A DNA stretch of 55,711 bases from Candidatus Omnitrophota bacterium (GCA_024277375.1 JAJRVD010000062.1:1-55711); one strand, 5' to 3'. Positions 22,332 through 54,025 are shown, numbered from the stretch's first letter. Made by a program: numbers and translations. Notes: a model not told the origin generated them from the sequence alone.

Positions 22332-22664
22332 TTAATGACTATGTCCCGTAACCCGATGAGTCGTACCGCTCAAAGCATAAGCACTGCTATCAACCGGACA
22401 AGTCGGAACCCCTTCAGGAAAATAGTTATTATCCGCTTCGATATCACTCAAGTCATTTGCCGGCCAGCTACCGTTATTGAAATACCATCTCTCTGTTTGC
22501 GTGTTTATGTTCGCTTTATTCGCGTCACACGCGGCGATCCTGGCTTACGCGGCCGTGTTTGTAAGGCGCGGAATAACAACCGCGGCCAGGATACCCATGA
22601 CCACAACAACGAACAAAATTTCGATCAACGTAAAACCTTTTTTCTTGATTCTCCTCCACAACAT
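22332..22664 (-). pseudogene. Major pilin-like gene interrupted by an in-frame TAA at codon 40
   Basis: AAGGAGG-5 nt-ATG. MLWRRIKKKG|FTLIEILFVVVVMGILAAVVIPRLTNTAA, then TAA at 22545-22547, then 70 further in-frame codons (ARIAACDANKANINTQTERWYFNNGSWP...CPVD...) to TAA at 22332. Confidence 0.8.
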
Positions 22665-22691
22665 TTTGTCCTCCTTCTTTTGTGTTATGAT

Positions 22692-22870
22692 TAGACTTCT
22701 GCAAAACGCTGTTTTTCTTATCAGACTGTGTCATAATGTAGGGGCTTGATTTATCAAGCCCGTTATATCGGGTTCGATAAATCGAACCCCTACAATATGT
22801 TGTATGCGGTCATCCGCGAAACAAATTACGACACAGGCTGAATAACGAAAGTTTCATTCTGCAGAACCCT
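22692..22870 (+). mobile_element. MITE-like element carrying a REPIN core
   Basis: Left end TAGACTTCTGCAAAACGCTG..CAGACTGTGTCATAAT. Core 22738-22793. Right arm ..TGTATGCGGTCATCCGCGAAAC..ACGACACAGG..TTCTGCAGAACCCT is an imperfect inverted repeat of the left arm. Confidence 0.8.
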
Positions 22871-22888
22871 ATGCGTTATAATACATCT

Positions 22889-22916
22889 GTAGAGGCACGG
22901 CATGCCGTGCCTCTAC
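22889..22916. repeat. Perfect 28-nt palindrome, GTAG-headed
   Basis: GTAGAGGCACGGCATGCCGTGCCTCTAC, 2 nt after the pilC stop. Confidence 0.85.
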
Positions 22917-22918
22917 CC

Positions 22919-24127
22919 TTAATTCATCATATTAGCCGTCAGGTCGAACATCGGCAGATAAATGGCCAACGCTATAAAACCTACGACTATGGCTAAAAAT
23001 ACCGTAAGTAACGGTTCTATCTTCGTTACCAGTTTTCCTACTTCGTAGTCAATATCCCTATTAAGAAAATCAGCGCTTTTCTTAAGCATAGCGTCCAGTG
23101 CCCCGGCTTCTTCCCCGGCCGCCACCATTTGCGTGACCATAGGCGGAAACAATTTTTCCCGGCTGAGCGCGTCAGCTATTTTTCTGCCCTCTCTAACATC
23201 TTCCCGGAGACTGTCTATTATGTTGGTTATCACAACATTCCCCGATATCTCCCTTATCACTCCCAAAGCTTCCATAACACTGACACCGCTGGCAAATAAA
23301 GAAGCGAAGGTGCTTACAAAACGAGAGATCGCGACCTTCTGGTTTAATGGTCCGAATACAGGGAATTCCAATTTAATCCGGTCAATAAATAATCTCCCGC
23401 GCTCGGTCGCGTAGGCTTTTTTATATACAAATACAACGCCTGCGATCCCACTTATAACCACCCACCAATAACGAATAAATATTTTGCTGGTCGTGACTAA
23501 CAGCACTGTCGGAACGGGCAGAGCTATCCTCATCTTGCTGTAAACTTCGGCAAAAATAGGTACAATGAATATTATCAAAAACGTCACCACGACAGCGATC
23601 GCGGATAATACGATGATCGGATACGCGAACGCTTTTTTGATCTTTCTTTTTAGCTCTTGTTCTTTTGTCAAGTGTTCCGCTATTCGCATCAATACTTCAT
23701 CAAGAAGACAACCCGTTTCCCCGGTTTTGATCATATCTATATAAAAATTCGAAAAAACCGCGGGATGTTTTGACAAAGCATCCGAAAATCTCTCACCCCC
23801 TTCAAGATCTATACATACGCCATAGATCACTTTCCTCAAAACCTGATCGTCAGTTTGTCTGGCAAGGGTCCTCAGACATTTTATTATCGGGAGGCCCGCG
23901 TTTACCATGGCCGAAAGGCGTTCGGTAAATAACACAACAGCCGCGACAGGCACTTTTTTCCCTACCAGAGCGAAAAAGCTTTTCTTCGCTCTTGACTGTC
24001 TCAGGGCAGTGGCGAACAGTCCCCTTTTTTTAAGTTTGGCGCGAACCAGAGATTCTTCAGCAGCCACCATGGTGCCCTTGTACACTCTGCCTATCTCGTC
24101 CCGTGCCGTATAAATAAATTCGGCCAT
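22919..24127 (-). CDS. pilC: Type IV pilus platform protein PilC (T2SS F family)
   Basis: 402 aa with two T2SSF-type repeats and 3 TM segments. Confidence 0.9.
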   Translation of the reverse strand: MAEFIYTARDEIGRVYKGTMVAAEESLVRAKLKKRGLFATALRQSRAKKSFFALVGKKVPVAAVVLFTERLSAMVNAGLPIIKCLRTLARQTDDQVLRKVIYGVCIDLEGGERFSDALSKHPAVFSNFYIDMIKTGETGCLLDEVLMRIAEHLTKEQELKRKIKKAFAYPIIVLSAIAVVVTFLIIFIVPIFAEVYSKMRIALPVPTVLLVTTSKIFIRYWWVVISGIAGVVFVYKKAYATERGRLFIDRIKLEFPVFGPLNQKVAISRFVSTFASLFASGVSVMEALGVIREISGNVVITNIIDSLREDVREGRKIADALSREKLFPPMVTQMVAAGEEAGALDAMLKKSADFLNRDIDYEVGKLVTKIEPLLTVFLAIVVGFIALAIYLPMFDLTANMMN

Positions 24128-24141
24128 TGTAAATGTCCCCT

Positions 24142-24169
24142 GTAGGGGCTCGGCATGCCGTGCCCCTAC
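24142..24169. repeat. GTAG-headed GGCATGCC palindrome
   Basis: GTAGGGGCTCGGCATGCCGTGCCCCTAC, spanning the pilB stop codon and the pilB-pilC spacer. Confidence 0.8.
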
Positions 24170-25860
24170 TCCGTGTATACTACCCTCTTAATTTCTTCAA
24201 GTGTCGTAACTTTATCTCGTACCTTTTGCAAAGCGTTTTCCTGCAAAGTCCGCATACCTTCAGACTTCGCGAGCTCCTTTATCTCTACAAGCGACGCTCT
24301 TTTGTTTATTAACTCCCTGAGCCCGTCCGTCATTTTCATTATCTCAAAAACGGCTATACGCCCTCTGTATCCGGTATTATAACAAAACCCGCAACCACGT
24401 CCTCTGGCTAATTTCTGCCCGGAAGACAACATCAACCCGATACTTTTCAGTTCCTCTTCTGCCGGATCATATTCCTCCCGACATTCCGGACATATCTTCC
24501 GGCACAACCTTTGGGCTAAAGCGCCTATAACGGTCGAAGATATCAGGAAAGGTTCAACCCCCATATCAACAGCGCGTGTTACGGCACTGGGCGCGTCGTT
24601 TGTATGAAGAGTACTCAAAACAAGATGCCCCGTAAGCGCCGCCTGAATGGCGACTTCGGCGGTTTCCGCGTCCCTTATTTCTCCGACCATTATCACATCA
24701 GGGTCTTGTCGAAGGATCGTCCTGAGACCCGTCGCGAATGTCAGCTTTGCCGCGGGATCGATCTGGATCTGATTGATCCTGTCCAGGCGATATTCAACGG
24801 GGTTTTCGATAGTCATTACATTATCCGTTTTGGAATTCATCTGACTTAAGATCGCGTATAAAGTCGTGGTCTTACCGCTACCGGTAGGCCCGGTTACCAG
24901 GATCATGCCGTAAGGCTTCATAATAAGCTCCTTAAAAATCTCTTAATCCTGCCCCACAAATCCCAGATCTTCAAGTGATATCAGCATGCTTGACCGATCG
25001 AGGATCCTTAGAACCACCTTTTCTCCCGCGACCGTTAAAAGCGTGGAAACCCTCAGATCATATTTTTTATCACCTTTGGCGAACGCGATATGACCATCCT
25101 GCGGACGGCGTCTCTCGGTAATATCCAGATTCGATAATATCTTTACCCTCGAGATGACCGCGGCTTCGATATGTTTAGGTACTGTCATTATGTCGTGCAG
25201 TATTCCGTCAACCCTGTAGCGCACTATCATTTCCGGATCCTGCGGTTCAAAATGTATATCACTTGTTTTGACGTTTATAGCCCCGTTAACGATATCATTT
25301 ACCAGCTTTACAACCGGAAGGTCTTCCACTTGTCCCAGGTCTTCTTCGATGTCTATTTTTTCATCTTTTTTCTTCTCTTTAAGCTCTTTCATCCGCATAT
25401 CGATCAATGCCTGGCGAGAAGTTTCCTCCACCTTATAGTATTGATTGATCGCCTGCTCAACTTCCTTTTCGGTAGCCACCATCGGAAGTATGTTATATCC
25501 GGTTACCAATTTTATTTCGTCCCTGGCCGGAAGATTTAGCGGTGAGACAAAAGCGACATACAGGTGTTCCCCTTCCAATTTGACCGGGATAACCTTATAC
25601 TGACGGGCGGTTTCCTCGGCAAGTATCTTTACCACCTGAGGATCTATATTCTGGTCGATCAATCGTACAAATGGGATATCCAGTTGTAGCGCCAGGGCCT
25701 TAGCAAGACCCTCATCATCGACAAAGCGTTTATCAAGCAGTATCTCCTGCAACGGCGCGCCTGTCGCGGCCTGAGCCTTCTCGACCTCAGCCGCCTGGGC
25801 TTCAGAAACAAGACCTTCCGACAACAATATCTCTAACAGCTTTTTTGATCTCTCTGTCAT
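24166..25860 (-). pseudogene. pilB: PilB/GspE-family assembly ATPase split by an in-frame TAA
   Basis: ORF 24943-25860 holds the T2SSE_N domain and N-terminal ATPase part, ending LEDLGFVGQD-TAA (24943-24945). The same frame continues [26 protein letters not shown] (ORF 24166-24921) with Walker A/B and CPEC..CGFC. AAGGAG lies 7 nt before ATG 24921. Confidence 0.85.
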
Positions 25861-25882
25861 ATCACGTCTCCTGACTGTTTAA

Positions 25883-26257
25883 CTACTTACTTCCCGCCAA
25901 CGCTCTCCTTACTTTATCCAGAAGTACAACCGGGTTAAAAGGTTTAACTACATAATCCGTCGCGCCCATTCCAGATGATTTTTCGACATCCTCAATTTGA
26001 CCCTTAGCGGTAACCATTATTACCGGGATGCTTTTTGTCTCTTCCTCTTTTTTTAACGCGTACAGCACCTCATGTCCGTCCATTTCCGGCATCATTATAT
26101 CCAAAAGAACAAGCTCCGGTTGTTCGTCTTTAACCTTTTGCAGACCTTCTTTGCCATTCTCGGCGGTTATGATACGATACCCGTTCGCTTTTAATCTGGA
26201 CGCCAACATCTTTGTGATGTGAGGTTCGTCATCAACTATTAATATTTTCTCGTTCAT
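25883..26257 (-). CDS. Single-domain response regulator (receiver only)
   Basis: 124 aa. ILIVDDEP, LVLLDIMMPEMDG, VKPF. Confidence 0.9.
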   Translation of the reverse strand: MNEKILIVDDEPHITKMLASRLKANGYRIITAENGKEGLQKVKDEQPELVLLDIMMPEMDGHEVLYALKKEEETKSIPVIMVTAKGQIEDVEKSSGMGATDYVVKPFNPVVLLDKVRRALAGSK

Positions 26258-26284
26258 TTCTTCCCCCTATGATATTTACCTTTA

Positions 26285-26462
26285 AGGATCCTGCAAAACG
26301 GAACTTTCGTCATTCGGGCTGTGTCGTAATTTGTTTTGCGGATGGCCGCGTACAAGATATTGTAGGGATTCGATCTATCGAACCCGATATAACGGGCTTG
26401 ATGAATCAAGCCCCTACATTACGACACGATCCGATTGAAAAACAGCGTTTTGCATGAGTCTA
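26285..26462 (-). mobile_element. MITE-like element carrying a REPIN core (inverted orientation)
   Basis: AGGATCCTGCAAAACGG..GCTGTGTCGTAAT.., core 26362-26417 (slightly degenerate GTAGGGATTCGATC..), ..CAGCGTTTTGCATGAGTCTA. Confidence 0.8.
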
Positions 26463-26470
26463 ATTTACCT

Positions 26471-26839
26471 TTAGTCAGCTTTATCTTCTCCCAAAAGACG
26501 TTTGATCCTTGCCAATAAGTCTCCCGGCTCAAAAGGCTTAACAATATAATCCGTTATACCTTCAGCTTCAAACAGATCCGTCATACCGCTTTTCGCTGAA
26601 AGCACAATTACGGGTATTTGCCGGGTTTCTTTTTTCAATTCTCTCACAAACGTATAACCGTCCATTTTGGGCATCAATATATCCAAGATCACCAGGTCCG
26701 GCGATTCTTCGTGAAATTTTTCGAACCCTTCCTTCCCGTCATAAGCTACGATAACTTCATAATCGTTCGCCTGCAAACGATGTTCTACCATTTTGATGAT
26801 ATGCGGATCATCGTCTATTATCAATATTTTTTTAACCAT
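26471..26839 (-). CDS. Single-domain response regulator
   Basis: Start moved to ATG 26839 (AAGGAGG 6 nt upstream). ILIIDDDP, LVILDILMPKMDG, VKPF. Confidence 0.9.
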   Translation of the reverse strand: MVKKILIIDDDPHIIKMVEHRLQANDYEVIVAYDGKEGFEKFHEESPDLVILDILMPKMDGYTFVRELKKETRQIPVIVLSAKSGMTDLFEAEGITDYIVKPFEPGDLLARIKRLLGEDKAD

Positions 26840-26917
26840 CACTTTCCTCCTTAAAGTTCGCGACCCATCAGCCGGAGGCTGATACCGCTCCTGCAACGAC
26901 GGCCCATGGACTATCGT

Positions 26918-28438
26918 CTATTTTTGCTCTTCTATTTTATTAAGCAATTCTTCCGAAGCGTTCCCGTCTTCCGGAAAAGTCGCTATTTTGTAAGTGATCT
27001 TAACTTGCTCTTCGGGATATTCCCGCGCCAGAGCCTCATTGACTATATGGCTGATCCTACCAGCTAAAACTTCGGCTCCTTCTTTCTCTGTAGCGGGAAG
27101 CATAACCAATATCGCTCGAGTATCCTTGATCGCGACGTCGGCCTTACGACGAAGGTTATTCTTGACCATGTCGTCTATAAGGTTGATCACTTTCAAAGTC
27201 TTTTGAGACCCGGATTTTTCCTGCAACGCGTAATAATTCTCTACGTCAAAGAACATTATAGATAAAGATGTTCCCTGCTCGTTCGCCTCCTCTATACCAT
27301 TAGTTACGCTCTCGGCGAAAACCTCCATAAGTGTATACTTCGGCAAAACAAAGACGAATTTCGTACCTTTACCCAATTCACTGTCAACTTCTACCTTCGC
27401 TTTATGTAATTCAATAATTCCCTTAACGATCGAAAGCCCTAACCCCGTGCCTTTTTCTCCGGCACCGTCGGTACGGCTGAATTGGCTGAATTTGGAAAAC
27501 ACCTCCGACATATCTTCTTTACTTATACCGACACCTGAATCAGCGACATAACATTCCACTTTGTCCCCTTTATCTTCCACCGATACATCAATGTATCCTT
27601 CTTTAGTGAATTTGACCGCGTTACCGATCAAATTGGTGAACACCTGCACTATCTTATCCTTATCCACGTATACCTCAACTTTTTCTTCGGGCAAATGTAA
27701 TCTCAGCTCTAAGCCAAGACCCTCAATTCGTTTTATAAAAGAAAGTCCAACCCCTCTCACCAAAGTAGAGATATCAACTATCGTTCGATGTAACTCAACT
27801 TTCTTCGCCTCGATTTTCGAGACATCCAGAAGATTGTTTATTATACGTCGAAGGCGGTCTATATCTTCAAGCGCTATTGATAAGAACTCTCTCTGGTCTT
27901 CTGTCGTCTCTCCGAGTATCCCTTCTAAAACCTGGCTAACACCTTCGCGTATGGATGTTAAGGGCGTGCGCAATTCATGTGATACTGTTGAGAGAAAATC
28001 AGATTTCAATTGATCAAGCTTACGTAACTCTTTGTTCTTTTCTTCCAGTTCTTTATAAAGAAGTTTTATGGCGTCATTTGTTTTCTTGAGTCCCCAGGTC
28101 TGCGCGTCCAATTCATCCATGAACACCCACATCATCTTCGCGGCGGGTCCGCCTATTACATCTACTTGATCAGACTTTTCTTTCTCGAGAGCCGCATAAA
28201 CTTCAACGCTTCCGGTGACATCTATGATCCCGTCCAGAGAGGGGTCTTTTATAAGGCTTCGCCAATCAGAATCGACAGGTATCTTAAGCTTAGCGGCCCT
28301 TTTTATCCCGGGCGCGTCGGGCCTGGGGTCAACAACACCTATTATGTTCACCAGTTCATCCCGGCTTAAAACATCGATAAGAGCGTCCCCGCCTTTACCC
28401 GCGCCGACTATAAGTATGTTAGTTTTTTTGTTTCCCAT
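26918..28438 (-). CDS. Cytoplasmic histidine kinase: Rossmann-like N-terminus, HisKA, HATPase, degenerate GGDEF-like C-terminus
   Basis: NILIVGAGKGGDAL dinucleotide-fold motif; H-box SHELRTPLTSI; G-box GTGLGLSIVKG; C-terminal ~150 aa are GGDEF-like but lack GGDEF (RRKADVAIKDTRAILVML). No TM segments. Confidence 0.8.
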   Translation of the reverse strand: MGNKKTNILIVGAGKGGDALIDVLSRDELVNIIGVVDPRPDAPGIKRAAKLKIPVDSDWRSLIKDPSLDGIIDVTGSVEVYAALEKEKSDQVDVIGGPAAKMMWVFMDELDAQTWGLKKTNDAIKLLYKELEEKNKELRKLDQLKSDFLSTVSHELRTPLTSIREGVSQVLEGILGETTEDQREFLSIALEDIDRLRRIINNLLDVSKIEAKKVELHRTIVDISTLVRGVGLSFIKRIEGLGLELRLHLPEEKVEVYVDKDKIVQVFTNLIGNAVKFTKEGYIDVSVEDKGDKVECYVADSGVGISKEDMSEVFSKFSQFSRTDGAGEKGTGLGLSIVKGIIELHKAKVEVDSELGKGTKFVFVLPKYTLMEVFAESVTNGIEEANEQGTSLSIMFFDVENYYALQEKSGSQKTLKVINLIDDMVKNNLRRKADVAIKDTRAILVMLPATEKEGAEVLAGRISHIVNEALAREYPEEQVKITYKIATFPEDGNASEELLNKIEEQK

Positions 28439-28800
28439 TATTTTATGAGCCTTTTAACCGCCTCTACCAGGTTGGCGGAATCGCTTGTTTTTACACAATA
28501 ATCATCCGCACCGGATTTTCGTGCTTTTATCGCGTCAACCGCGTCAATTGCCCCGGTCATCACTATGATCTTCAGACCCTCCGGACCTTGTTCCCGTATC
28601 TGACGACATACCTCGAACCCGTCAATACCCGGGAGCATGGTATCGGTAATCACAAGATCCGGGTTTTCAATACCGGCCTTCTCTACCCCTTCTTCCCCGG
28701 TCTCGGCCGTAACAATATCTTCAAACCCCGCTTTTTTTAAGAACCTGGTCATTATTTTCAGATCCTGCTCGTTATCGTCTACGACTAATAGTCTGGCCAT
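28438..28800 (-). CDS. Single-domain response regulator
   Basis: 120 aa. LLVVDDNE, LVITDTMLPGIDG, KSGADDY. Confidence 0.9.
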   Translation of the reverse strand: MARLLVVDDNEQDLKIMTRFLKKAGFEDIVTAETGEEGVEKAGIENPDLVITDTMLPGIDGFEVCRQIREQGPEGLKIIVMTGAIDAVDAIKARKSGADDYCVKTSDSANLVEAVKRLIK

Positions 28801-28888
28801 GTGTCCTCCGTGTGTCTTCCATTATACCGGGAACAGTCCACGCGCGGCTTCGCCGCTTGGGACAGTCCCCTGGCGAACTCAACAAGCT

Positions 28889-29368
28889 CTAATCCTTACA
28901 ATTTTCCGGGTTTGGTAATTTGTTTATGGTATTCCAATAAACACCAAACCCCTCGATCACTTTTACGAATTCCCGATAATCGATCGGTTTCTGTATGAAA
29001 CTTGCCGCGCCGTCCTTATAACTCTTAACCACATCTTCATCCTCTTTGGAAGACGTCAGCATAATAACGGGTATAAAATTATAATCCGAGTTAGCTTTGA
29101 TCTTCTTCAGAAGCCCGAAGCCGTCCATTTTAGGCATTTTAATATCAAGCAAGATAAGGTCGGGACGCGGAAATTTTACTTTATCTTCATATCTCCCTTT
29201 ATGATCAAGATAATCCAGAGCTTCCTCACCATTGTTAACCACATAAATATTGCTCTTCAGTTCCGCTTCGGCAAAAGCCCTCAAGGCTATTTTGATATCC
29301 GTCTGGCTATCCTCCACAAGAAGAATATCAATTGATTTAGCGTTATTTTGTTTAGACTTGTCCGTCAT
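28889..29368 (-). CDS. Single-domain response regulator (Rcp1-like)
   Basis: 159 aa. ILLVEDSQTD, LILLDIKMPKMDG, LTSSKEDEDV, QKP. Confidence 0.9.
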   Translation of the reverse strand: MTDKSKQNNAKSIDILLVEDSQTDIKIALRAFAEAELKSNIYVVNNGEEALDYLDHKGRYEDKVKFPRPDLILLDIKMPKMDGFGLLKKIKANSDYNFIPVIMLTSSKEDEDVVKSYKDGAASFIQKPIDYREFVKVIEGFGVYWNTINKLPNPENCKD

Positions 29369-29377
29369 TTTTTCTCC

Positions 29378-31339: not shown

Positions 31340-31402
31340 ATTAGTTACAATAAGAAGTATACTCAGGCCCTATACCATAGTCAAATTTAGTAATAAAATA
31401 GA

Positions 31403-31626
31403 TAGACTTCTGCAAAACGCTGTTTTTTCAATCAGACTGTGTCATAATACGGGAGATTGAAATATGCTGTAGGGGCTTGATTCATCAAGCCCGTTATATC
31501 GGGTTTGATGAATCGAACCCCTACAATATATTGTGTGCGGTCATCCGCCGATATATTGTATGCGGCCATCCACAAAACGAATTACGACACAGTCCGAATA
31601 ACGGAAGGTTTATTTTGTATAACCCT
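31403..31626 (+). mobile_element. MITE-like element carrying a REPIN core, with an internal 24-nt duplication
   Basis: TAGACTTCTGCAAAACGCTG.., core 31469-31524, right arm with tandem ATATATTGTGTGCGGTCATCCGCC / ATATATTGTATGCGGCCATCCACA, ..TTTTGTATAACCCT. Confidence 0.8.
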
Positions 31627-31652
31627 AAGTGAAACAGAAGAGAAGAAGACGT

Positions 31653-32030
31653 TCATTTAAACCGTACAGCCATTTCGATCTTATTGATAAGTTCTTTCCT
31701 GTCAACAGGCTTTACCATATAGTCCACAACCCCAAGCTTATACGCGTTGAGTTTGTCCTTATCTTTCTCAAGAGCCGATACAATGATGATAGATGTTCTC
31801 TTGCCTACCGGATCCGCGTTTAACATCTCGCATACTTCCATCCCGCCTACTGACGGCATAAGAAGGTCCAAAAGCAATACATCCGGTTTAAATCTGTTTA
31901 CCTCGGCAACAATATTCTTCGTGTTCGATAAGGTTAATACCTCATATTCACCTGCTGACTCCAGATTAAGCTTTACTATCCTGAGAAAATCTTGTTCGTC
32001 ATCAACCACCATTACTTTCTTTTTATCCAT
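31653..32030 (-). CDS. Single-domain response regulator
   Basis: 125 aa. VMVVDDEQ, VLLLDLLMPSVGG, VKPV. Confidence 0.9.
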   Translation of the reverse strand: MDKKKVMVVDDEQDFLRIVKLNLESAGEYEVLTLSNTKNIVAEVNRFKPDVLLLDLLMPSVGGMEVCEMLNADPVGKRTSIIIVSALEKDKDKLNAYKLGVVDYMVKPVDRKELINKIEMAVRFK

Positions 32031-32031
32031 G

Positions 32032-34488: not shown

Positions 34489-34513
34489 TTTCCTCTAAAG
34501 TTACACGTACGGA

Positions 34514-35437: not shown

Positions 35438-35460
35438 AACACATTTCCTTTTGGATAAAG

Positions 35461-36339: not shown

Positions 36340-36342
36340 AAG

Positions 36343-36723: not shown

Positions 36724-36748
36724 ACTATCCTCCCTTTTCTACCGTTCA

Positions 36749-36950
36749 TAGCCTCACACAAAACGCTGTTTTTTTAATCAGACGGTGTAATAGTGTAGGG
36801 GCTTGATTCATCAAGCCCTTTATATCGGGTTCGATGAATCGAACCCCTACAATATATGTATGCGACCGTCAGCAAAGCGATATATGTATGCGACCGTCAG
36901 CAAAACGACGACACAGTCCGAATGACGAAAGTTCCATTTTGCAGGATCCT
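36749..36950 (+). mobile_element. MITE-like element carrying a REPIN core, with an internal ~27-nt duplication
   Basis: TAGCCTCACACAAAACGCTG.., core 36795-36850, tandem ATATATGTATGCGACCGTCAGCAAA x2, ..TTTTGCAGGATCCT. Confidence 0.8.
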
Positions 36951-37026
36951 TAACCGTTCAGCGCTCTACCATCACATATCTATTGAGTATACCCATGCGG
37001 CACATAATATTGCAAATTTTAATATG

Positions 37027-39021
<1,995 letters not shown>

Positions 39022-39072
39022 TCATTCCGCCTTTCTGAACTTCATATGCTATCCCGAACAGCACACAAAGTT

Positions 39073-39128
39073 GCAGGGGCTTGATTTATCAAGCCCTCTT
39101 TAACGGGTTCGATAAATCGAACCCTTAC
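39073..39128 (+). repeat. Degenerate REPIN core only
   Basis: GCAGGGGCTTGATTTATCAAGCCC-tctttaac-GGGTTCGATAAATCGAACCCTTAC, between ligA and polX. Confidence 0.8.
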
Positions 39129-39132
39129 ACTA

Positions 39133-40858
39133 CTATCGTTCCAGCACCTTCATCAATTTCTCCAAACTATACGTATTAATTACATCTTTTTTCTCAAGCC
39201 AACCTCGCTTAGCGGTTACCACCCCGTAGATCATCTCATCTAGCTGTCCCACCTCATGCGAATCCGTACTAATGACAAACTTAGCTCCAAGCTCTTTCGC
39301 GCGCCGCGAGTTAACATCATTAAGGTCTATTCTATCTCCATGCGTATTTATTTAAAGGGCAATATTTTCCTCAACCGCTTTTTTGAACACTTTATCGAAG
39401 TCTATCCGGATCGCGCTGCGAGCTGTTATCAGCCTCCCAGAAGGATGTGCGAGAATATTTACATACTTATTATCCAGAGCCCGTAAAATACGTTCGGTTT
39501 GTTTTTTTTTCATCAAGCGCAAAAAACGAATGTACCGCCGCGATCACAACATCCAGTTCTTTTAACACACTGTCATCCATATCAAGCTTACCGTTCTTAA
39601 GAATATCCACTTCCACTCCGGCAAGTATCTTTATACCTTTTATCTTTTTGTCTATTGCCCGTATGTTTTTTACATGTTTTAACAGACGTTTCTCATCCAT
39701 ACCACCCGCGATACGCACATATTTTGAGTGATCCGTTATAGCTATATAGTTGTACCCCTTTTGCTTCGCGGCTCGAGCCAGCTCCTCTATGGAACAGGAT
39801 CCGTCACTCGCGGTCGTATGCATATGAAGATCGCCCTTTATATCCCTCAGTTTTAGAAACTTCCGTGGTAGAGTTCCCTGCCGCGACAATTCGATCTCGC
39901 CACGATTTTCACGCATCTCAGGTGGGATCCATGACATGCCTATTTTTTCGTATACTTCCTCCTCGGTCCTACCGGCCACTTTACGTCCGCTCTTCACAGA
40001 AAAGACTCCGTACTCGTTAACTTTATAGCCTTTTCTCCTGGCTATTTTGCGCATCTCGATATTGTGTTGTTTTGATCCCGTAAAATATACGAGTGCCGCG
40101 CCGAAAGAAGCTTCATCAACTATCCTGAGATCTATCTGAGGACCTTCCTTTAAGGATATACTCGACTTGGTTGCCCCCTTGACAATTATTTCGGCGGCAT
40201 CCGGATAATTGGTAAAATAATCCATTGCCGCGCCGGCATTATCGGCCACAGCAAGTATATCCAGATCACCAATGGTTTCTCTGCCGCGACGCAGACTTCC
40301 GGCTTGTTCTATTTTTTTGAAATTGCGAGACTTCGATAAATACTCTACGATTTTCGCGGCAAAGTACGTCGCCTCGGGAAGAAGCATACGCCCTTCACTT
40401 TTTTTGAAATGTTTTATTGCCGCTAATAATTTATCCTGGGTCTTCGCCCCCATACCATCAAGAGACTCGAGCTCACCGGCCTTACAGGCTTTTTCCAGTT
40501 CGCTCACATTCTCGACCCCCAACTCGTCTCTCAATTTTTTTAATTTTTTGGGACCCAACCCCGAAAGATCAAGCATATCAAGGAACCCAGCGGGGAATTC
40601 TTCGGTGAGTTTATTGTAATACCCGAGATCGTTTGTGGTTACAAGCTCAACTATCTTCTCTTTCAGATCTTTGCCTATACCGGGAATATCAGAAAGTTGA
40701 GATCCATCTTCGGAATATATATCTTTAAGCTGGCGGGAAAATCCGGAAATGTTTTGCGAGGCGGTACGGTAAGCACGCACCCTGAAAGGGTTGGCCCCCT
40801 GTATTTCAAGCGCATCCGCTATACGGGAAAATATATGTGATATTTGCCTGTTATCCAT
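39133..40858 (-). pseudogene. polX: Family X DNA polymerase with PHP domain, disrupted by an A9 frameshift and an in-frame TAA
   Basis: ORF 39470-40858 holds the HhH/PolX core and the start of the PHP domain (HMHTTASDG). The frame changes in the A9 run (39502-39510). It continues EKKQTERILRALDNKYVNILAHPSGRLI..NIAL-TAA(39352-39354)-INTHGDRIDL..STDSH.. to TAG at 39133. Confidence 0.85.
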
Positions 40859-40868
40859 TATGTTATAT

Positions 40869-41047
40869 TAGACTCATACAAAACACTGTTTTTTCAATCA
40901 GACCGTGTCATAATGTAGGGGCTTGATTCATCAAGCCCGTTATATCGGGTTCGATAAATCGACCCCCTACAATATACTGTATGCGGCCATCCGCAAAACA
41001 AATTACGATACAGCCCGAATAACGAAAGTTCCGTTTTGTAGTGTCCT
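40869..41047 (+). mobile_element. MITE-like element carrying a REPIN core
   Basis: TAGACTCATACAAAACACTG.., core 40915-40970, ..TGTATGCGGCCATCCGCAAAAC..TTTTGTAGTGTCCT. Confidence 0.8.
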
Positions 41048-41126
41048 CATTTATATAGTATAAGAGAAAACCCACCCCGTAAAGGTAAAAGTTACGTTTA
41101 TGCTTTGACTAAATATGAAACATATA

Positions 41127-41155
41127 TTGATTTTTAAGCAATCTTGTATTATAAT
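41127..41155 (+). promoter_or_regulatory. Sigma70-type promoter giving a near-leaderless sigma-factor mRNA
   Basis: TTGATT-17 nt-TATAAT, with 6 nt between the -10 box and the ATG at 41162. Confidence 0.45.
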
Positions 41156-41161
41156 GAGCGT

Positions 41162-41731
41162 ATGACTACTGAGGTTTTACTAAAACAATGCGTGGACCGA
41201 GACCTTACTGCCTGGGATAAATTCGCGTGCCTCTATAACCCTCTTGTCATCAAAAGTGTGCGGTATAAACTTGGTAAAATGAATGTTCGCGTCTCAAAAA
41301 GTGAATACCGTGATATAGCACAGGAAATATTTCTGTTTATCTGGGAAAAGGAAAAACTATCAGGTGTGCGCGATCCAAAATGCCTTAAAAGCTGGCTTAT
41401 TATATTTTCTTTGAATTTCACGTCAAACTATTGCAGGAAAATGCTTAAGAAATCAGAAGACACGTTTTCGTTCGATGACACTCTGGTCCCTTCTTTTAAG
41501 TTTACTCCGACTAAAATGTTGGAATCCAAGGAACTTGGTAATATAATCAAGGAGAAGATCGCTGAATTTGATAACACCCAGCAACTCGCGCTTAAGTTGC
41601 ATATATATCATAACAAGAAACAAAAAGACATTGCCGGGATAATGAACCTGCCGATCGGAACTGTCTCAACACTGCTCCGGCGCGGTAAAAGTATACTCAG
41701 GGAGCGGCTTAGGGATACGTTGGATATATGA
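41162..41731 (+). CDS. ECF-type RNA polymerase sigma factor
   Basis: Region 2 (DIAQEIFLFIW) and region 4 HTH (QKDIAGIMNLPIGTVSTLLRRGK). ATG 41162 preferred over TTG 41144. Confidence 0.85.
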   Translation: MTTEVLLKQCVDRDLTAWDKFACLYNPLVIKSVRYKLGKMNVRVSKSEYRDIAQEIFLFIWEKEKLSGVRDPKCLKSWLIIFSLNFTSNYCRKMLKKSEDTFSFDDTLVPSFKFTPTKMLESKELGNIIKEKIAEFDNTQQLALKLHIYHNKKQKDIAGIMNLPIGTVSTLLRRGKSILRERLRDTLDI

Positions 41732-41770
41732 TGCGTTACGAGTAATTATAACCTGAAAAGGAGAACCAAT

Positions 41771-42181
41771 ATGAATAATCGGATATGCCCATCAGACGCG
41801 ACGTTAAGCGAATACCTGGGGGACACACTTACGCCGGAATGCAAAGCCAGCGTAGAAGCGCATCTTGCCCTCTGCACGAGGTGTCAGAAACTATTAGTGG
41901 AAACACAGGAAATCTTAAATAAGCCCTATGCCCGCGGCATCATACATAACATAGTTTTCTGGATAAAAACCAACCGCTGGCTTATTGCCTCGACTGTTAC
42001 ACTCACGCTTTCATTTCTTGCATCTAAATACTTTCTTCAATTCCTTGTCGCCTCGATCCTCACCGGCGCCAAATGGATCATCGACTCCAAAACCACAAAA
42101 ACACTCATTATGATCCAAAAAGCGATACAATCCGGGGACAATGAAGAGACTAAAAGCATTCTTTCAAAAATTAACCGATAA
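41771..42181 (+). CDS. Anti-sigma factor (zf-HC2) with one TM segment
   Basis: HLALCTRCQKLL HxxxCxxC motif, then TM helix WLIASTVTLTLSFLA. Immediately downstream of the ECF sigma gene. Confidence 0.7.
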   Translation: MNNRICPSDATLSEYLGDTLTPECKASVEAHLALCTRCQKLLVETQEILNKPYARGIIHNIVFWIKTNRWLIASTVTLTLSFLASKYFLQFLVASILTGAKWIIDSKTTKTLIMIQKAIQSGDNEETKSILSKINR

Positions 42182-42248
42182 CTCTCTCTTCCCGGCGCGA
42201 TAGACACGCTGGAGCGGGTCACGCGAAGAATGCGCGGATTGAAATCTA

Positions 42249-44447
42249 TTACTGTCTTCCGCCCTTAAAGGCGGTTATTGCTACGAAAAGAAGTAAAAGC
42301 GGAATAATTATGGCTAGTATTGTTAATATCTCGACAGATACATTCTTGAATATCTCTTTTTTAGTCTTTTTCTGACCGGTTGCTTCTTCAGATAGCTTAC
42401 TCAATTTGAAAAGGCCGATACCTTTATCTATAAAATTCGATTCTACTTTGATAATAACGACATCTTCATCTTCCCTCCATATGCCCATATCTCCAAACGA
42501 AGCATAATTGATCTTACAATTCCTTAACCTTGACCCTTCTTTAAGCCTAAGCCCCTTCCAGCTCCTTCCTGCCGCTTTCCCTCCCGAGTATCCCCCGTAC
42601 AAACTATCTCCGAGGCAGGTAAAAACAACCGGTTCCGAGTCCTTTCCCTCGGCAATAATTTTGCCGCTGATAACAGCTCCCTCAGTGGCTTTTACGACGC
42701 TTCCCGCCTCAACGGTAAGTTGGGCTTTATCTGAAATATCAAGCGACTGAACATGATAGTCACCCTTCTGCCATAAAACACTACGAGATATATTCTCCCC
42801 TTCTATCTTAATCGCGTCAGAATACGCGTTCCCTTTTATTTTATTGTCCACCAAATTATTTTCAGCGTCCGCGACTATACCGTATGACTTATTGTTTTTG
42901 ATCTCATTACTTAAAACATCTACATAATTCTTTATTCGTTCCGGGCTCTTTGACTATTCGCCTCTCTGACTCCCGGTGAATATCCCGCCAGCAGAGTTAC
43001 CACGTATCTCATTACCTATTATAACCGATGAATTTTTAACACTTTGATCTTTATGTGACTTTGAATCCGAAACTAAAATACCATTCTTTTCGTTTTTTGA
43101 TATATTATTTCCCGAGACCAGAACTTTTGTGTCTCGTCCTTCTGTTTTTATTCCTACCCCGTTATGGGCATTGCTCGTAACACTGCTGTTTTTGAGGACC
43201 GACTCTCCTCTTAAAGAAACCGCGTCGGTTTTGTCCCTGCCCGCGTACTCGATTTTACAATTATTGAGAACCGATTCCCCGTTAAGATCAAGCCCCTTCC
43301 AATCCCCGGGAGACGCTCTCTTCCTGGCTGAGGTAAATATTATCGGTTCTCCTCCGGAGGCATCAGCAATGATATTGCCTGAAAGCGATGCCTGTCCCGC
43401 CATAAATCTGACCTCCACTCCCGGCTCTATTATCAAACTCGCGCCGTTCTCAATAACAACCGCGGAACTCACCAGATATGGACCACCTTCACGCGTCAAT
43501 ATCGTATCTTTCGTTATCCTGTCGGGAAGACCCGTTCCTCCTAAAAAATTTTCCGCGGCTGTTGTTTCAAGGGAAAACCCGCTTTCATACCCTTCCCGCA
43601 CGGCGGTAACAGTATAGAAATAATCTCCCGCCGGGATGCCTATATCCGTATAGCTATTGCCCGACACCGGCTCTGAGTTTATTTTTCCATAAGATCGCCC
43701 TGAAACATTAGTACGATAGATATTATAGCCAGCGACTGATCCCTCATCGATAAGATCCCAGGACACCACTGAATTTGCCTCTTCCCTTTTAGCCCTTACA
43801 TTTTCGGGACCGTCAAAAAATTCAACGGTTCCCTCGGAACTGTAAAAATAAGTTATATGAAACACCAGCGGTTTACTTTCGATCCCACATATATTTTTTG
43901 ATTTTATAACCAGCGTATTAAGGCCCCGCTTCAACTCAAAACTCCCTTTCCATTTTCTGGAAGATGTCGGTGGCGCCACTTCAGTGCCATTGATATATAC
44001 CGAACTGTACGCGTCTTTCTGCCCCTTGAATTTCTCAAGCTTATCGTTGGTATACGTATACATCAGGTCAAGATCCGGCGTTCGCGGAACCCGTACATTT
44101 CCCTCTATAACGAGATCAGACTTATTTTCTTTCACGCCAAGCAAAAAATTATTCTTCTTTTTTATAACAACCTCATTAACCCGAACCGTAAGAACACCTT
44201 TGTTAAGTATCAGATTACTGAGAACAATGTCCTCTATTTGGTATCGACCGTTACTACCGGTCAAGGCGGTATACTCCACATCTCCGACTAAAAGCGATAC
44301 CTTCGCTCCGCGCACTGTCGCGTTATCAGGGATTTGAGATACAGTGCCCTTTAAAATCGTAGTAATATATTTGTTATTGGCATGGGATTCGGTGGGAAAC
44401 GCTATTATGATCAGAAATAGAGCTAGGATGTAAGGTCTGGTTTTCAT
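42249..44447 (-). pseudogene. Large secreted protein (CarboxypepD_reg-like, Fn3-like, parallel beta-helix repeats, C-terminal TM anchor) interrupted by an in-frame TAG
   Basis: ORF 42954-44447 (signal peptide ...ESHANNKY) ends ..FTGSQRGE-TAG (42954-42956). 33 stop-free in-frame codons with beta-helix-like repeats (NEIKNNKSYGIVADAENNLVDNKIKGNAY) run into ORF 42249-42854, which has only a TTG as nominal start. Confidence 0.7.
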
Positions 44448-44554
44448 AACTATTTTTTATTAGATCCTTCGACTCTCTCGCGTTGCTCGTTCGCTCAGGA
44501 TGACAGAGAGGAAAGCCACCTCTTCTACTTACTCATCACGTATTACGCTTTACC

Positions 44555-45136
44555 CTAGCGCCTTTTCTTAATATCTTCCGGCTCATCCTGTTCATCGGCC
44601 AGGACTATTTTCTCGACAGACATCCTACAGCTTAATACATCCGATCCTCTTTCTTTTGGTCTTAACCTCAAGTTAGATATCCTCAAAAGCTTCTTAGATT
44701 TTTCTATACTATGCATAAATCTAACTATCTGGTCCATAAGTCCTTCACAGTCGACTTTTACTACATAGGCCTTTAGCAACCCCTCTCTCCGGGTGCCGCT
44801 GGGAGACGAATCTACCAGATAAACTTCATCTTCATCGGCTAATTCTTCTATCTGAGCTAAAACAGCAGCTAACTCATCTTCCGAAGACAATGCTTCTAAG
44901 GGATATTTTTTGTACATCTCAACTTCTTTTAATATCCTTTCCCTATTGGATAATATACGTATGTTTGATTTTAGAAGCACTTCTTTTTCGCCTATCGTAC
45001 TATCCAATGTTTGTATCTGTCCCATTATAGGGCCAAGTATCAGTCTATCCGAGAACACAACGAATATCACAAACACCGAAATTATCAAAATCGTACGTTC
45101 TCTTGAGGATAAATTCGCTAAGATCTTATCTAACAT
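44555..45136 (-). CDS. PilO/GspM-like assembly protein
   Basis: 193 aa: TM anchor, coiled coil, C-terminal alpha/beta domain. Follows the PilMN-like gene. Confidence 0.45.
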   Translation of the reverse strand: MLDKILANLSSRERTILIISVFVIFVVFSDRLILGPIMGQIQTLDSTIGEKEVLLKSNIRILSNRERILKEVEMYKKYPLEALSSEDELAAVLAQIEELADEDEVYLVDSSPSGTRREGLLKAYVVKVDCEGLMDQIVRFMHSIEKSKKLLRISNLRLRPKERGSDVLSCRMSVEKIVLADEQDEPEDIKKRR

Positions 45137-45139
45137 AAA

Positions 45140-46597
45140 TTACCTTTTTTTCAATTCTCCGACTATTTCAAAAATAGCCACATCACGATCTTTTTCTTTT
45201 CTTTTAGACGTGTACTTAGCCTCTATATTTTTAAAATACGAGGAACCTTCCATTATACCTATAAACGTAAACACACTGGACATCGAGTCAGAGAACCCTC
45301 TTATCGAGAACACATCCCCCGCGGAAAGTTTTATATCGGATAAATACGTGTTATCCGGCAACAGATCATGGATCTCCGATACAACGTTCAACATATACCC
45401 CTGATTTGAAAGATAGTTCTTTACCAATTTGACCTCAGTCATAGCTTTCTCAAGCATTTCTACATCTCCCGATATAGCGTTTAATTGTTGCTGAATACGT
45501 TTGGCATAAACGCTACGGAAATATATTTTCCCTATGAGCACACTGCATAAAAGCGTCATTATTATTATAACGTAAACGCCGGATTTGATCATCGACCTGC
45601 TCCGCTGTTCAAGCTTATGCTTGAATTTCACTTCCTCGGGCAAAAGATTGACCGTCATCGCGTCCGGAGCCAAAAGAGGCGCGACGACGTTCAGAAAAGA
45701 CATCCTCTTGGCACCCTCAATAAGCGTACTCACCGCCTTATCACTCATAGGAAGATGGCTGAAGTACGGAACTATCCTTGCCGGAACATGCAATGTCGCG
45801 TTCAATTTTTTCTCCAGATCTCTTACCTCTTCGGTAGCGCCCAATAAATATAAATTAGTCGGAACGCTTCCAATATTCTCGGACTGATAAGCATCCATTG
45901 ATAATCTGATCTGTTCAATAAATTTATTTTCGCTCACTTCTTTGTCAGAAAGAAAATGCTCAGCGCCTATAGGCATACTTCTTACAAACAACGGCATATT
46001 TTTCAACACTACCGTGAAATCCGTATATTCGTCGTCTATATAGGCGAAAACAATGGGTGAATCACTGGCACTCATCTTCAGGATGGAAGGATATATCGAC
46101 GCGAAGGCTTCCGGACAAAAAACCATCCTCTCTACCCTCAGATGCGCGGCAGACAATATATTAAGCTGCCTCATAATGACATTGCGATTTACAATGATCA
46201 GTAAAATTTTCGTGTACGTCTGTTTATGAACCCCCAGATTTACATGATCAACCACTATCTCTTCCCGGGCAAAAGGGGTATGTCTGCCTGCCTGGAGATT
46301 AATTATTTCCTCCACTTCCCTGATATCGCGGGACGGGACTTCTATGTTTTTCGTCATTGTGATCTGATTTGGAATAGGACAAATAACGGCGGGGTTCTTC
46401 GCTTTCAGTTCACTGACATACTCTTCCACAAGCCCGGTAATCTCAGCATCCGACATGCCCTTGGTATCGTGGTCGATAAGACGTACTATTTCGCGCTTAA
46501 TATTAGATATTTTCGCGTGTGCTATTTTTAAATGATGTCCGCTTAAATCTATAGCTACCACATCTTTACTCGCGAACATTGAAAGTGGACTATCCAA
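45140..46597 (-). CDS. PilM-PilN-like (GspL-like) fusion protein
   Basis: 485 aa. Actin-like N-terminal part (VVAIDLSGHHLKIAH), internal TM (VYVIIIMTLLCSVLIG), PilN-like C-terminus. TTG start with AGGAG 8 nt upstream. Confidence 0.55.
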   Translation of the reverse strand: MDSPLSMFASKDVVAIDLSGHHLKIAHAKISNIKREIVRLIDHDTKGMSDAEITGLVEEYVSELKAKNPAVICPIPNQITMTKNIEVPSRDIREVEEIINLQAGRHTPFAREEIVVDHVNLGVHKQTYTKILLIIVNRNVIMRQLNILSAAHLRVERMVFCPEAFASIYPSILKMSASDSPIVFAYIDDEYTDFTVVLKNMPLFVRSMPIGAEHFLSDKEVSENKFIEQIRLSMDAYQSENIGSVPTNLYLLGATEEVRDLEKKLNATLHVPARIVPYFSHLPMSDKAVSTLIEGAKRMSFLNVVAPLLAPDAMTVNLLPEEVKFKHKLEQRSRSMIKSGVYVIIIMTLLCSVLIGKIYFRSVYAKRIQQQLNAISGDVEMLEKAMTEVKLVKNYLSNQGYMLNVVSEIHDLLPDNTYLSDIKLSAGDVFSIRGFSDSMSSVFTFIGIMEGSSYFKNIEAKYTSKRKEKDRDVAIFEIVGELKKR

Positions 46598-46625
46598 AAC
46601 TTTGATCTCCTTTTTGCAGTGTATA

Positions 46626-46804
46626 TAGACTCCCGCAAAACGCTGTTTTTTTAATCAGACTGTGTCATAATGTAGGGGCTTGATTCATCAAGCCCGTTAT
46701 ATCGGGTTCGATAAATCGAACCCCTACAATATATTGCATGCGGCCATCCGCGAAACGAATTATGACATGACCCGAATGGCGAAAGTTCCATTTTGCAGGA
46801 TCCT
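46626..46804 (+). mobile_element. MITE-like element carrying a REPIN core (best-preserved copy)
   Basis: TAGACTCCCGCAAAACGCTGTTTTTTTAATCAGACTGTGTCATAAT, core 46672-46727, ..TGCATGCGGCCATCCGCGAAAC..GAAAGTTCCATTTTGCAGGATCCT. Confidence 0.85.
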
Positions 46805-46901
46805 TCAGTATATAGCATGTGATATGTAGTTGAGATCCCTCCACTCGTTTCGCTCGGTCGGGATGACAACCAGAAAGCTCGCCTAAGCACCATATACTGG
46901 C

Positions 46902-48020
46902 TCATTCCTCTGGCACACTCTCCGTATAAAATCTCTCTCTCCAGTATTTTATAGCCTCTTTGCCTCTTCCCAGACCGGAACGATCAAAAATACAAACAAC
47001 TTCAGCGACCGATCGCTTACAGGGAAATCTTGCCACGCTCTTTATCGTGAACACGCTGGAGATAGTATCCAGTTTATTTGCCGAAACCAAATTGGCGAGC
47101 TCCGCGGATTCTTTGGAAGTCAACGCCATTTCCTTGTTTAGATCAGCGGTTATAGCGCCTCTCGCGGTAAAGTAATAATCGTCAAAAGTTCCCTCTTCGC
47201 CATCCATACCGGTTCTAAACCGAATAATTTTATTTATCAGGTCTCTTCCTATCCCGAGCGCGTTCAAAACGGTTTTTGAGGCCGTATTTATATTTACCCG
47301 CCCGTTACCGTATACGGTTATATAAGGCCTTATATTGTCATAAATTTCCGGCGTGATTCCTTTAACCAGCTGTAATTCTTCCACAAGCTCGAACGGCGAA
47401 CTTTTGCAATTGTACGGGGGCTTAAGCCCGCTATAATATTTCGACTCGGCGCCATTTATTTTCGGGAAATCATCTTTATCCCGCCAGTCTATGATCGCGG
47501 CGGCTATATCATCAGCTTTTTTCTTACCCAATCCCGCCGCGAGTCTGAACAGTTTTTTCATTATATCATAGTCAGCGGTATTAATATTTATTTTTCTTTC
47601 CTCGTCTATCATTCCATATCGTTTTTCCAGATCCTTATAATCGCCGGGAGAGTAAGGATACTCCACCGAAAACTCCACCCCACCCAGATCTACCCCTCCG
47701 AGAAAATCGTTAATACTCCATGACTCCACCAACGCGTCATAAAGCATACCCTTTTCCTTTTCCGACAAAACAACTATTGCCGCTTCCACCCCGGATGTCG
47801 CGGCCAGGCGCAGTTTATGGCGCTTACTTAACCTGTAAACGAAATCGATCTTACTCCTGGCGCTATTACCCATAGAAAGAGCGAACATGGTCAATATGGC
47901 AAGCGACCACATCGCGACCATAAGCACGCTTCCTCGATTAAATCCCTTCCGTCTCTTCTTTAAACTCGATCTTCGCGACAGGGATATTGATCGTTTTAAT
48001 GTAATTAGAAAGTTTTTCAT
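46902..48020 (-). CDS. gspK: Minor pseudopilin GspK
   Basis: N-terminus ..NRGSVLMVAMWSLAILTMF. Two HhH-like motifs (ININTADYDIMKKL, VNINTASKTVLNAL). ATG 48020 overlaps the gspJ-like 3' end by 83 nt. Alternative ATG 47921 has GAGGA upstream but would remove the RGSVL motif. Confidence 0.75.
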   Translation of the reverse strand: MKNFLITLKRSISLSRRSSLKKRRKGFNRGSVLMVAMWSLAILTMFALSMGNSARSKIDFVYRLSKRHKLRLAATSGVEAAIVVLSEKEKGMLYDALVESWSINDFLGGVDLGGVEFSVEYPYSPGDYKDLEKRYGMIDEERKININTADYDIMKKLFRLAAGLGKKKADDIAAAIIDWRDKDDFPKINGAESKYYSGLKPPYNCKSSPFELVEELQLVKGITPEIYDNIRPYITVYGNGRVNINTASKTVLNALGIGRDLINKIIRFRTGMDGEEGTFDDYYFTARGAITADLNKEMALTSKESAELANLVSANKLDTISSVFTIKSVARFPCKRSVAEVVCIFDRSGLGRGKEAIKYWRERFYTESVPEE

Positions 48021-48546
48021 CTTTTCCAAACGCTAATTCCAGCTTAACAGCTATCGGTATTCCACGAGACCACTCCTTTACCCACGCGTAAACACGCATA
48101 GCTTCATCGTATATATAATACGAAAATTTCGCGAACGCTATATCCGGGATAGCTTCTTTTTCAGGAGAAGTCTTCTCTTCCTGTATCTGATAAAATGTTT
48201 CCTTTACGCTGTATATAGCCTCTTTTCTGTCATCATAAAAATATGTCATTCTTCCCGGAAGAGTTTTACCGTCTCCGGAAAGAACAAACGTAGGTATCTA
48301 AACAGCGGCTTCGTCACCGCTAAAATCAATGCCTTTGTATACAATAGCATTCTTTACATCCGTAGTGAATTTATCAAAAAATATTGCCACCTCACCCTCC
48401 ATGGCGATACCATTTACTCGACGCCAAATATCTATGCCGTTATTAAGAACTCCGCCCAGGGCAAGAGCGATAACCGAAAGCATCGCCGCTACCAGCATAA
48501 CTTCGATGAAGGTGAAACATTTCTGCGTTCGCAATCTCTTTTTCAT
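47938..48546 (-). pseudogene. GspJ/PilW-like pseudopilin interrupted by an in-frame TAG
   Basis: MKKRLRTQKC|FTFIEVMLVAAML.. (Cys rather than Gly at position -1) ..FSGDEAAV-TAG (48298-48300)-IPTFVLSGDGKTLPGRMTYFYDD.., continuing in the same frame to 47938. Confidence 0.7.
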
Positions 48547-48549
48547 TAT

Positions 48550-49309: not shown

Positions 49310-49343
49310 AACTTATCTCCTTTTTAAAACCTTTTTTGTCATT

Positions 49344-49465: not shown

Positions 49466-49597
49466 GCGGGTGAGGCCCAGTGAGCGAAGCAATCTCTATA
49501 GATATTAGTCACTTTAGGAGATTGCTTCGTCGGCACTTCGTGCCTTCTCGCAATAACGATTAAATTCTCATCTATCGATCATGGACTATGGACCAAT

Positions 49598-50401: not shown

Positions 50402-50424
50402 GCCCTTGATCTCAAGTTTACGAA

Positions 50425-54005: not shown

Positions 54006-54025
54006 ATTGCTCCTCTCAGCATTCA

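Follow-up and report, generated by a model that had tools for sequence, protein, structure and literature searches.

In-frame TAA and TAG codons at positions where relatives encode Glu, with the reading frame conserved beyond them, occur under stop-codon reassignment and suppression, as in ciliates that read UAR (R, purine) as Gln or Glu, in TAG- and TGA-recoded phages and bacteria, and in the presence of amber or ochre suppressor tRNAs. The same codons arise from Glu codons by G:C→T:A mutation in bacteria deficient in the oxidised-guanine (GO) repair genes mutM, mutY and mutT or in base-excision repair (BER), and from artefacts of 8-oxoguanine (8-oxoG) in sequencing libraries and in DNA amplified from single templates, which Costello et al. 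are said to have traced, in 2013, as G>T/C>A changes to acoustic shearing. A gene may also be divided into two consecutive in-frame open reading frames (ORFs), as in the split pilin of Geobacter, PilA-N/PilA-C, and other fissions. Here, we describe a contig of Candidatus Omnitrophota (JAJRVD010000062.1), analysed in its entire length of 55,711 bp and referred to below as the window, in which a type IV pilin-like gene, pilB, polX, a gene for a beta-helix protein and a gspJ-like gene are each interrupted by an in-frame TAA or TAG. We argue, with a probability of roughly 0.85, that these stops are the product of unselected G→T damage and that no recoding is involved.

The window shares features with each of these systems. 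With reassignment it has in common in-frame TAA and TAG codons at the Glu positions of relatives and a conserved frame beyond them; with the Geobacter fission, a pilin and a pilus ATPase that each form two consecutive in-frame ORFs; with GO- or BER-deficient mutators, G:C→T:A conversion of Glu codons to TAA or TAG in several genes that show no other decay, and a broken repair gene, polX; and with 8-oxoG library artefacts, changes that are G→T only, confined to one strand and blind to selection, with the GGT→TGT hits placed at the 5' G of GG doublets. All five stops are in frame and on the minus strand, and each is flanked on either side by homologous sequence:

22545-22547, minus strand: TAA after codon 39 of the type IV pilin-like gene
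24943-24945, minus strand: TAA at codon 306 of pilB
39352-39354, minus strand: TAA in polX (GAA→TAA)
42954-42956, minus strand: TAG at codon 498 of the beta-helix protein gene
48298-48300, minus strand: TAG at codon 83 of the gspJ-like gene

The interrupted genes are as follows:

22332-22664, minus strand: type IV pilin-like gene, 110 codons, with the prepilin motif KKGFTLIEIL
24166-25860, minus strand: PilB/GspE-family pilus ATPase, 564 codons, its stop 18 codons ahead of the Walker A motif
39133-40858, minus strand: PolX, a PHP-domain family X DNA polymerase, 574 codons after conceptual repair, with two lesions
42249-44447, minus strand: beta-helix protein, secreted or membrane-anchored, 732 codons, the last gene of a second secretion-like cluster
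47938-48546, minus strand: GspJ-like minor pseudopilin, 202 codons, aligned with 50 syntenic homologues

Relatives of all five genes encode single, uninterrupted proteins that span the stop site. An earlier, sequence-only reading of this DNA had reported exactly one internal stop in each of the five genes and none in any gene of the first 22 kb. The five interruptions, with homology continuing in frame, are borne out, and so is the integrity of the first 22 kb; the count of a single lesion fails for polX, which carries a +1 frameshift as well. Gene intactness was judged by full-length Pfam coverage together with reciprocal tblastn using the ORFs of relatives, where relatives exist, and by Pfam only for the genes at 0-7.4 kb; no further internal stop or change of frame was found in the remaining window genes. 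As a background control, 901 alignments of the same gene families from 173 related loci, comprising 281,372 residues, were searched for internal stops. They contained 6, of which ~3 were counted as real, including two clean single ones. At the control rate, 0.19 stops would be expected in the 17,443 codons of the window, and five were observed (P(≥5) = 1.6e-6). The excess lies in this count. The positional clustering that had been proposed is not upheld, the five positions being compatible with uniform scatter (range test, p = 0.14), nor, by our own estimate (p ~0.07), is it significant that four stops fall in genes for the pilus or for secretion, whose clusters occupy ~38% of the window.

The two clean control stops, in RnfD of one related locus (L133) and in PilM/N from the cluster resembling a type II secretion system (T2SS) in a Hainich Omnitrophica genome (L053), are both TAG and fall in columns where the window has Glu. 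In L133, a contig whose name ends in length-1383-cov-2, the TAG occupies the position of an RnfD Glu present in 77/77 sequences. Among lesions of this kind in these public assemblies, G→T nonsense changes may perhaps be the most frequent. An apparent sixth stop in the window, a single TAG between a histidine kinase-GGDEF gene and a response regulator in the same frame (26471-28438, minus strand), was rejected as a normal gene boundary, because the kinase ends as does its unfused orthologue in locus L001 and the regulator has its own AAGGAGG and ATG. The two proteins are fused in loci L004 and L092 (600-609 residues) and separate in L001 and L090.

That every stop lies one G→T step from a Glu codon, as the sequence-only reading emphasised, is trivially true of any TAA or TAG, and the ancestral residue was therefore read from orthologues. 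For PolX, with ~90 Omnitrophota orthologues of 55-70% identity, alignment places a Glu ancestor beyond doubt (Glu in 91/91). For PilB it is very probably Glu, which 5/6 nearest orthologues and most of the 24 aligned ones have in this column. The column of the GspJ-like stop (E 13, S 13, T 5 and others among the 50 homologues) makes Glu plausible, and the pilin column (T 4, E 1, D 1 in six relatives) gives a weak case for it. In the beta-helix protein the ancestral codon cannot be inferred, as the stop falls within an extra coil of ~37-40 residues that is missing from both full-length homologues (689 and 712 residues; 40% identity), although these span the site; a search for a DNA-level repeat that would mark this coil as a recent duplication found none. 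A Glu ancestor had thus been overstated for the pilin and the beta-helix protein. Glu codons make up 18.5% of the one-step nonsense targets in the window, and both assignable stops are at Glu.

The hit genes are otherwise well preserved. The pilin is 64-75% identical to pilins of 110-116 residues encoded beside PilC, in the same gene order, at six related loci. The best matches of PilB are 72-74% identical and all ~564 residues long, the 24 aligned orthologues range from 552 to 625 residues, and the window protein departs from none of the columns that are invariant across the 25 aligned sequences. PolX matches the Thermus thermophilus enzyme (3AU2) end to end with E = 2e-133. Its second lesion is a frameshift in a homopolymer:

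39502-39510, minus strand (T9 on the plus strand): A9 run in polX with a +1 frameshift, the only 9-base homopolymer in the window

Deletion of one A from this run yields a gapless end-to-end alignment with 3AU2, in which those catalytic motifs of the polymerase and PHP domains that were checked by eye are intact. PolX shows 9 singleton deviations, the stop included, compared with a median of 5 and a maximum of 21 among its orthologues; LigA, an intact neighbour used as a control, shows 4 (median 4). Old, decaying pseudogenes were considered and rejected, since the PolX deviations are within the orthologue range, the motifs checked are intact and the invariant PilB columns are kept. The lack of other decay in the hit genes implies that the lesions are either very recent or technical.

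Missense changes were sought as residues unique to the window at conserved columns, compared column by column with orthologues, using the 173 related loci and 91 PolX and 132 LigA homologues as controls. A first scan, in which PilB and PilC were set against paralogues from the second cluster, was discarded as confounded. Four strong changes at conserved glycines emerged:

19254-19256, minus strand: G266C (TGT) in the PilM/N fusion, Gly in 5/5 orthologues, candidate G→T
23708-23710, minus strand: G140C (TGT) in the GExGG motif of PilC, Gly in 48/48 PilC/GspF homologues, candidate G→T
47676-47678, minus strand: G118V (GTG; numbered from the ORF start at 48029) in GspK, Gly in 38/44 homologues, candidate G→T
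48517-48519, minus strand: Cys (TGT) at prepilin position -1 of the GspJ-like protein, where the 50 homologues have G 40, A 8 and S 2

The Gly(-1)Cys change of the GspJ-like protein, which had been pointed out before, is real and unique among the 51 sequences. Together with the Glu ancestors of PolX and PilB, the two further GGT→TGT changes (PilC and PilM/N) and the GGN→GTG change in GspK sustain the earlier suggestion of a process specific for G→T. The G on the 5' side of a GG doublet is a preferred site of guanine oxidation, and three of the four Gly changes, all GGT→TGT, are at such a G. Gly→Cys singletons are more frequent in the window (3/309) than in the controls (9/5969; Fisher p = 0.019), in a test prompted by the remark on the GspJ-like protein and refined after the data had been seen. 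Coding-strand C→A changes, with 8 pure singletons where control rates predict ~11, show no enrichment. The nine G→T changes all lie within 19.2-48.5 kb (range test, p = 0.028), and in the genes at 7.4-15.1 kb and 49.6-55.6 kb, which align well, none was found at strongly conserved sites.

The window offers 1575 nonsense, 9771 missense and 2247 synonymous targets for G→T, so that five stops predict ~31 missense and 7 synonymous changes; ~5.9 of the missense changes would be detectable in the alignments, and the four strong ones were seen. Taken together, these figures fit a low-rate, unselected G→T process (~1-2 per 1000 G), with a mild hint that stops are over-represented relative to it. In an informal comparison, window-specific G→C changes at highly conserved columns seemed frequent in the Rnf region (7.4-15.1 kb), at 12/149 singletons compared with 62/1780 in the controls; examples are M59I (ATG→ATC) and G294A in RnfD and, in LigA, G512A and G592A, and the replacements are mostly conservative.

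On the reading that we prefer, the five stops would be ordinary loss-of-function point lesions and not a coding device. Guanines of the minus, gene-coding strand would have been read as T, as is expected if they were oxidised to 8-oxoG, which pairs with A; GAA and GAG would then become TAA and TAG, and GGT would become TGT. The hits appear blind to selection, falling on an invariant PolX residue, a pilus ATPase, the major pilin and an invariant PilC glycine. We infer the chemistry, and an origin in the tube rather than in the cell, from this spectrum. If the lesions were fixed in vitro, to which we give close to even odds, the record would stem from one or a few damaged templates, as in a single-cell library, a low-input amplified library or a very thin consensus, and a stretch damaged on one strand would have been copied into all reads; the slip from A8 to A9 in polX would be a second, unrelated small error in the same record. 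Nine G→T changes within ~30 kb of one strand are as expected from one damaged template fragment. A technical origin is also supported by the control contig L133, labelled cov-2 and showing GAG→TAG at an invariant Glu, and by the window organism having been sampled once. Several observations weigh against it. The implied consensus error, ~1-3 per 1000 G on one strand, would need an unusually damaged library of few templates; ordinary Illumina contigs of 55 kb and benchmarked single-cell assemblies have consensus error far below this, no platform normally comes near such a rate, and 8-oxoG artefacts normally stay at low read frequency and out of the consensus of so long a contig. (The CCG>CAG context reported for shearing damage is not comparable here, the context being fixed by the codon.) Taken as a whole, pure G→T singletons show no enrichment, at 7/309 against ~7.7 expected from the controls, and adding the ~5.9 predicted missense changes to this background gives P(≤7) = 0.04; only the Gly→Cys subclass stands out, in a comparison that carries the qualification stated above. 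Furthermore, the left end of the contig is a tandem repeat array of the kind at which normal short-read assemblies typically end, and both the two independent lesions in PolX and the ribosome-binding site (RBS) and ATG that follow the PilB stop fit a real biological history somewhat better. That history would be one of very recent lesions made in the cell, in a lineage or founder cell under a G:C→T:A mutator state or heavy oxidative damage, that disabled the pilus, a secretion-like system and PolX and left fresh pseudogenes, an explanation we regard as only somewhat less probable; loss of GO repair (mutM/mutY) or of BER could be the cause, and the broken PolX could contribute. The G→T evidence for it is identical to that for a technical origin. 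A frameshift plus a stop in PolX is as expected of a gene already dead, the Met of the canonical AAGGAG and ATG 8 codons past the PilB stop is unique among orthologues, and the length of the contig, 55.7 kb, together with its break at a repeat array, suggests that short-read depth was adequate and that few consensus errors should be expected. Surface-appendage machinery, which loss-of-function selection often targets (phage pressure is one example), contains four of the five stops, although this enrichment is not significant, as noted above. GO- and BER-deficient mutators, however, act genome-wide, on both strands and under the filter of selection, whereas the changes seen here appear confined to 19-48.5 kb, no purifying selection against the stops is seen, and the hit genes show no secondary decay. 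The window itself contains neither mutM nor mutY. Extended to the whole genome, the rate would knock out ~10% of genes, among them functions that the phylum as a whole retains (many related loci keep both clusters in synteny), and the abundance of such an organism at the level required for assembly would be hard to explain. Both of these leading explanations are already known phenomena.

Translation through or around the stops accounts for the data less well. The stops might be read through by a suppressor tRNA (anticodon UUA or CUA, perhaps Glu-accepting) or by leaky termination, in which case GAR→UAR would be nearly neutral. All five are TAA or TAG, with zero TGA; the firmly assigned ancestors are Glu; the downstream frames and their conserved residues are fully retained; and the slight over-representation of stops relative to missense changes (P = 0.04) would be accounted for. 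One of the five, the GspJ-like TAG, is followed at ~15-52 nt by a stable hairpin (48245-48285, minus strand; z = -2.6 against shuffled sequences). TAA, however, is the main terminator among the 53 window genes (TAA 35, TAG 11, TGA 7), so that an efficient ochre suppressor would extend most proteins, and the gene ends match the C-termini of orthologues. Only 5/53 genes contain internal stops, and none occurs in the well-aligned Rnf, LigA, T2SS-E/F and ATPase genes. Orthologues have sense codons at every testable site, and in none of the five genes does a relative share the stop. The sites share no common context (the next bases are G, G, A, T and A) and no downstream RNA structure, the fold z-scores of the other four being -1.1, +0.6, +1.1 and +1.4. 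Within the window there are no tRNA genes, no Rfam matches and no other sign of a suppressor or recoding signal, and a full-text literature search for stop-codon recoding or pseudogenes in Omnitrophota returned nothing relevant. Moreover, read-through leaves the PolX frameshift and the Gly→Cys changes at invariant glycines unexplained. With TAA and TAG ending 46/53 genes, full reassignment is unlikely, as had been judged before, and recoding of any kind appears unlikely on these grounds; read-through as a general explanation strikes us as very improbable, and its most specific form, an Omnitrophota lineage with a weak Glu-inserting ochre/amber suppressor that tolerates UAR in pilus, secretion and repair genes although most genes continue to end in UAA or UAG, as more improbable still. 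For PilB alone, a real fission can be considered, in which residues 1-305 would form one protein and the ATPase core another, the latter translated from a candidate restart site of its own:

24919-24933, minus strand: AAGGAG, 6 nt and ATG (Met314), 8 codons past the PilB stop

This site could possibly permit separate translation of the ATPase core. Its spacing is like that of genuine window starts such as those of GspG and the anti-sigma factor. Met314 is unique relative to the 24 aligned orthologues, and among the 6 true internal in-frame Shine-Dalgarno (SD) plus ATG sites in ~16,900 codons it is the only strict internal AAGGAG plus ATG. The chance of such an RBS and ATG directly after the stop is p ~0.003-0.02 in a post hoc test, a result that also counts against purely technical damage. 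No restart site was seen, by eye, past the other four stops. Against fission, the homologues among the matches listed are all single proteins of ~480-810 residues, with the split common to none, and the break would fall ~10-15 residues inside the C-terminal domain rather than in an interdomain linker, as judged by alignment with the known PilB/PilT architecture. The 7 codons between stop and ATG still encode the conserved F-K-x-L-I without an indel, so that any fission must be too recent to have been shaped by selection. In contrast to the Geobacter pilin, the C-terminal piece of the window pilin has neither start codon nor signal, the restart is found only in PilB, and no relative is split. 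We consider a PilB fission very unlikely, if marginally less so than read-through.

If the damage arose in vitro, as we tentatively favour, a public assembly contains consensus G→T errors that appear as false pseudogenes, ~10% of the window genes are mis-annotated, and the pilus, secretion and PolX content of this organism should not be counted as loss of function. If it arose in the cell, the contig is a snapshot of a bacterium after an oxidative or mutator burst and before selection; this is a known kind of process, and it bears mildly on the loss of function in host-dependent Omnitrophota. Read-through alone would be of wide interest if true, and a weak Glu suppressor would represent a bacterial intermediate toward a code in which UAR specifies Glu.

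The host is an uncultivated member of Candidatus Omnitrophota, as judged from the best matches of PilB, PolX and the secretion ATPase, which are Omnitrophota metagenome-assembled genomes (60-74% identity); it is not Ca. Omnitrophus magneticus, whose PolX is only 59% identical. The window is one whole contig, and NCBI is its sole source in the protein collection. Seven window proteins have no relative of at least 90% identity among ~15 billion sequences, forming singleton clusters of NCBI origin only, and a search of genome and metagenome contigs with a 63-base pattern across the PilB stop, its first codon base left free, found no conspecific DNA; the organism has thus been sampled once. Nearly all genes are on the minus strand, and GC skew is negative throughout. 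They include cytochrome c maturation and multihaem genes, an Rnf/Nqr-like operon, a type IV pilus-like cluster at 17.3-26.3 kb, a series of histidine kinase and response regulator genes, LigA, PolX, a sigma/anti-sigma pair and, at 42.2-54.0 kb, the second, T2SS-like cluster, whose gene order is conserved in dozens of Omnitrophota loci. This conserved order (42249-55586, minus strand; loci L008-L087) comprises an F1-beta-like ATPase, a GspE-type ATPase with a C-terminal PilZ domain, GspF, a peptidase_MA-family protein, GspG, three minor pseudopilins, a PilM/N fusion and GspM/PilO. In the window and in locus L005 the last gene of the cluster encodes a large membrane-anchored beta-helix protein.

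The window is also punctuated by a repetitive extragenic palindromic (REP)-like paired hairpin of the form GGGCTTGAT-NN-ATCAAGCCC, 8 nt, GGGTTCGAT-NN-ATCGAACCC, which occurs about a dozen times. The pattern has 50 matches, compared with 0.13 expected, and the ten paired sites are all in gaps between real genes, two of them overlapping the edges of called ORFs. The elements are:

1-280: REP tandem array at the left contig end, a 114-nt unit with two hairpins in 2.5 copies
8566-8613: REP-like paired site
11289-11336: REP-like paired site
22742-22789: REP-like paired site
26366-26413: REP-like paired site
31473-31520: REP-like paired site
36799-36846: REP-like paired site
39077-39124: REP-like paired site
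40919-40966: REP-like paired site
46676-46723: REP-like paired site
49395-49442: REP-like paired site

Translation of the array (…GFDKSNPY…, …INQAPT…) yields spurious small ORFs. An 84-codon ORF at 46651-46905 (minus strand), which overlaps a REP element and has a homologue in 0/87 loci (L001-L087), is unlikely to be a real gene. For the RnfA/E-like gene, the long ORF with a TTG start (10637-11332, minus strand) begins within a REP element, which places its true start further downstream. Finally, the gene at 316-2082 (minus strand), whose end directly abuts the REP array, is unusual in its architecture, with a complete single PDC/Cache-type sensor domain placed at the C-terminus, after an HMGL-like (pyruvate carboxyltransferase-type) domain.

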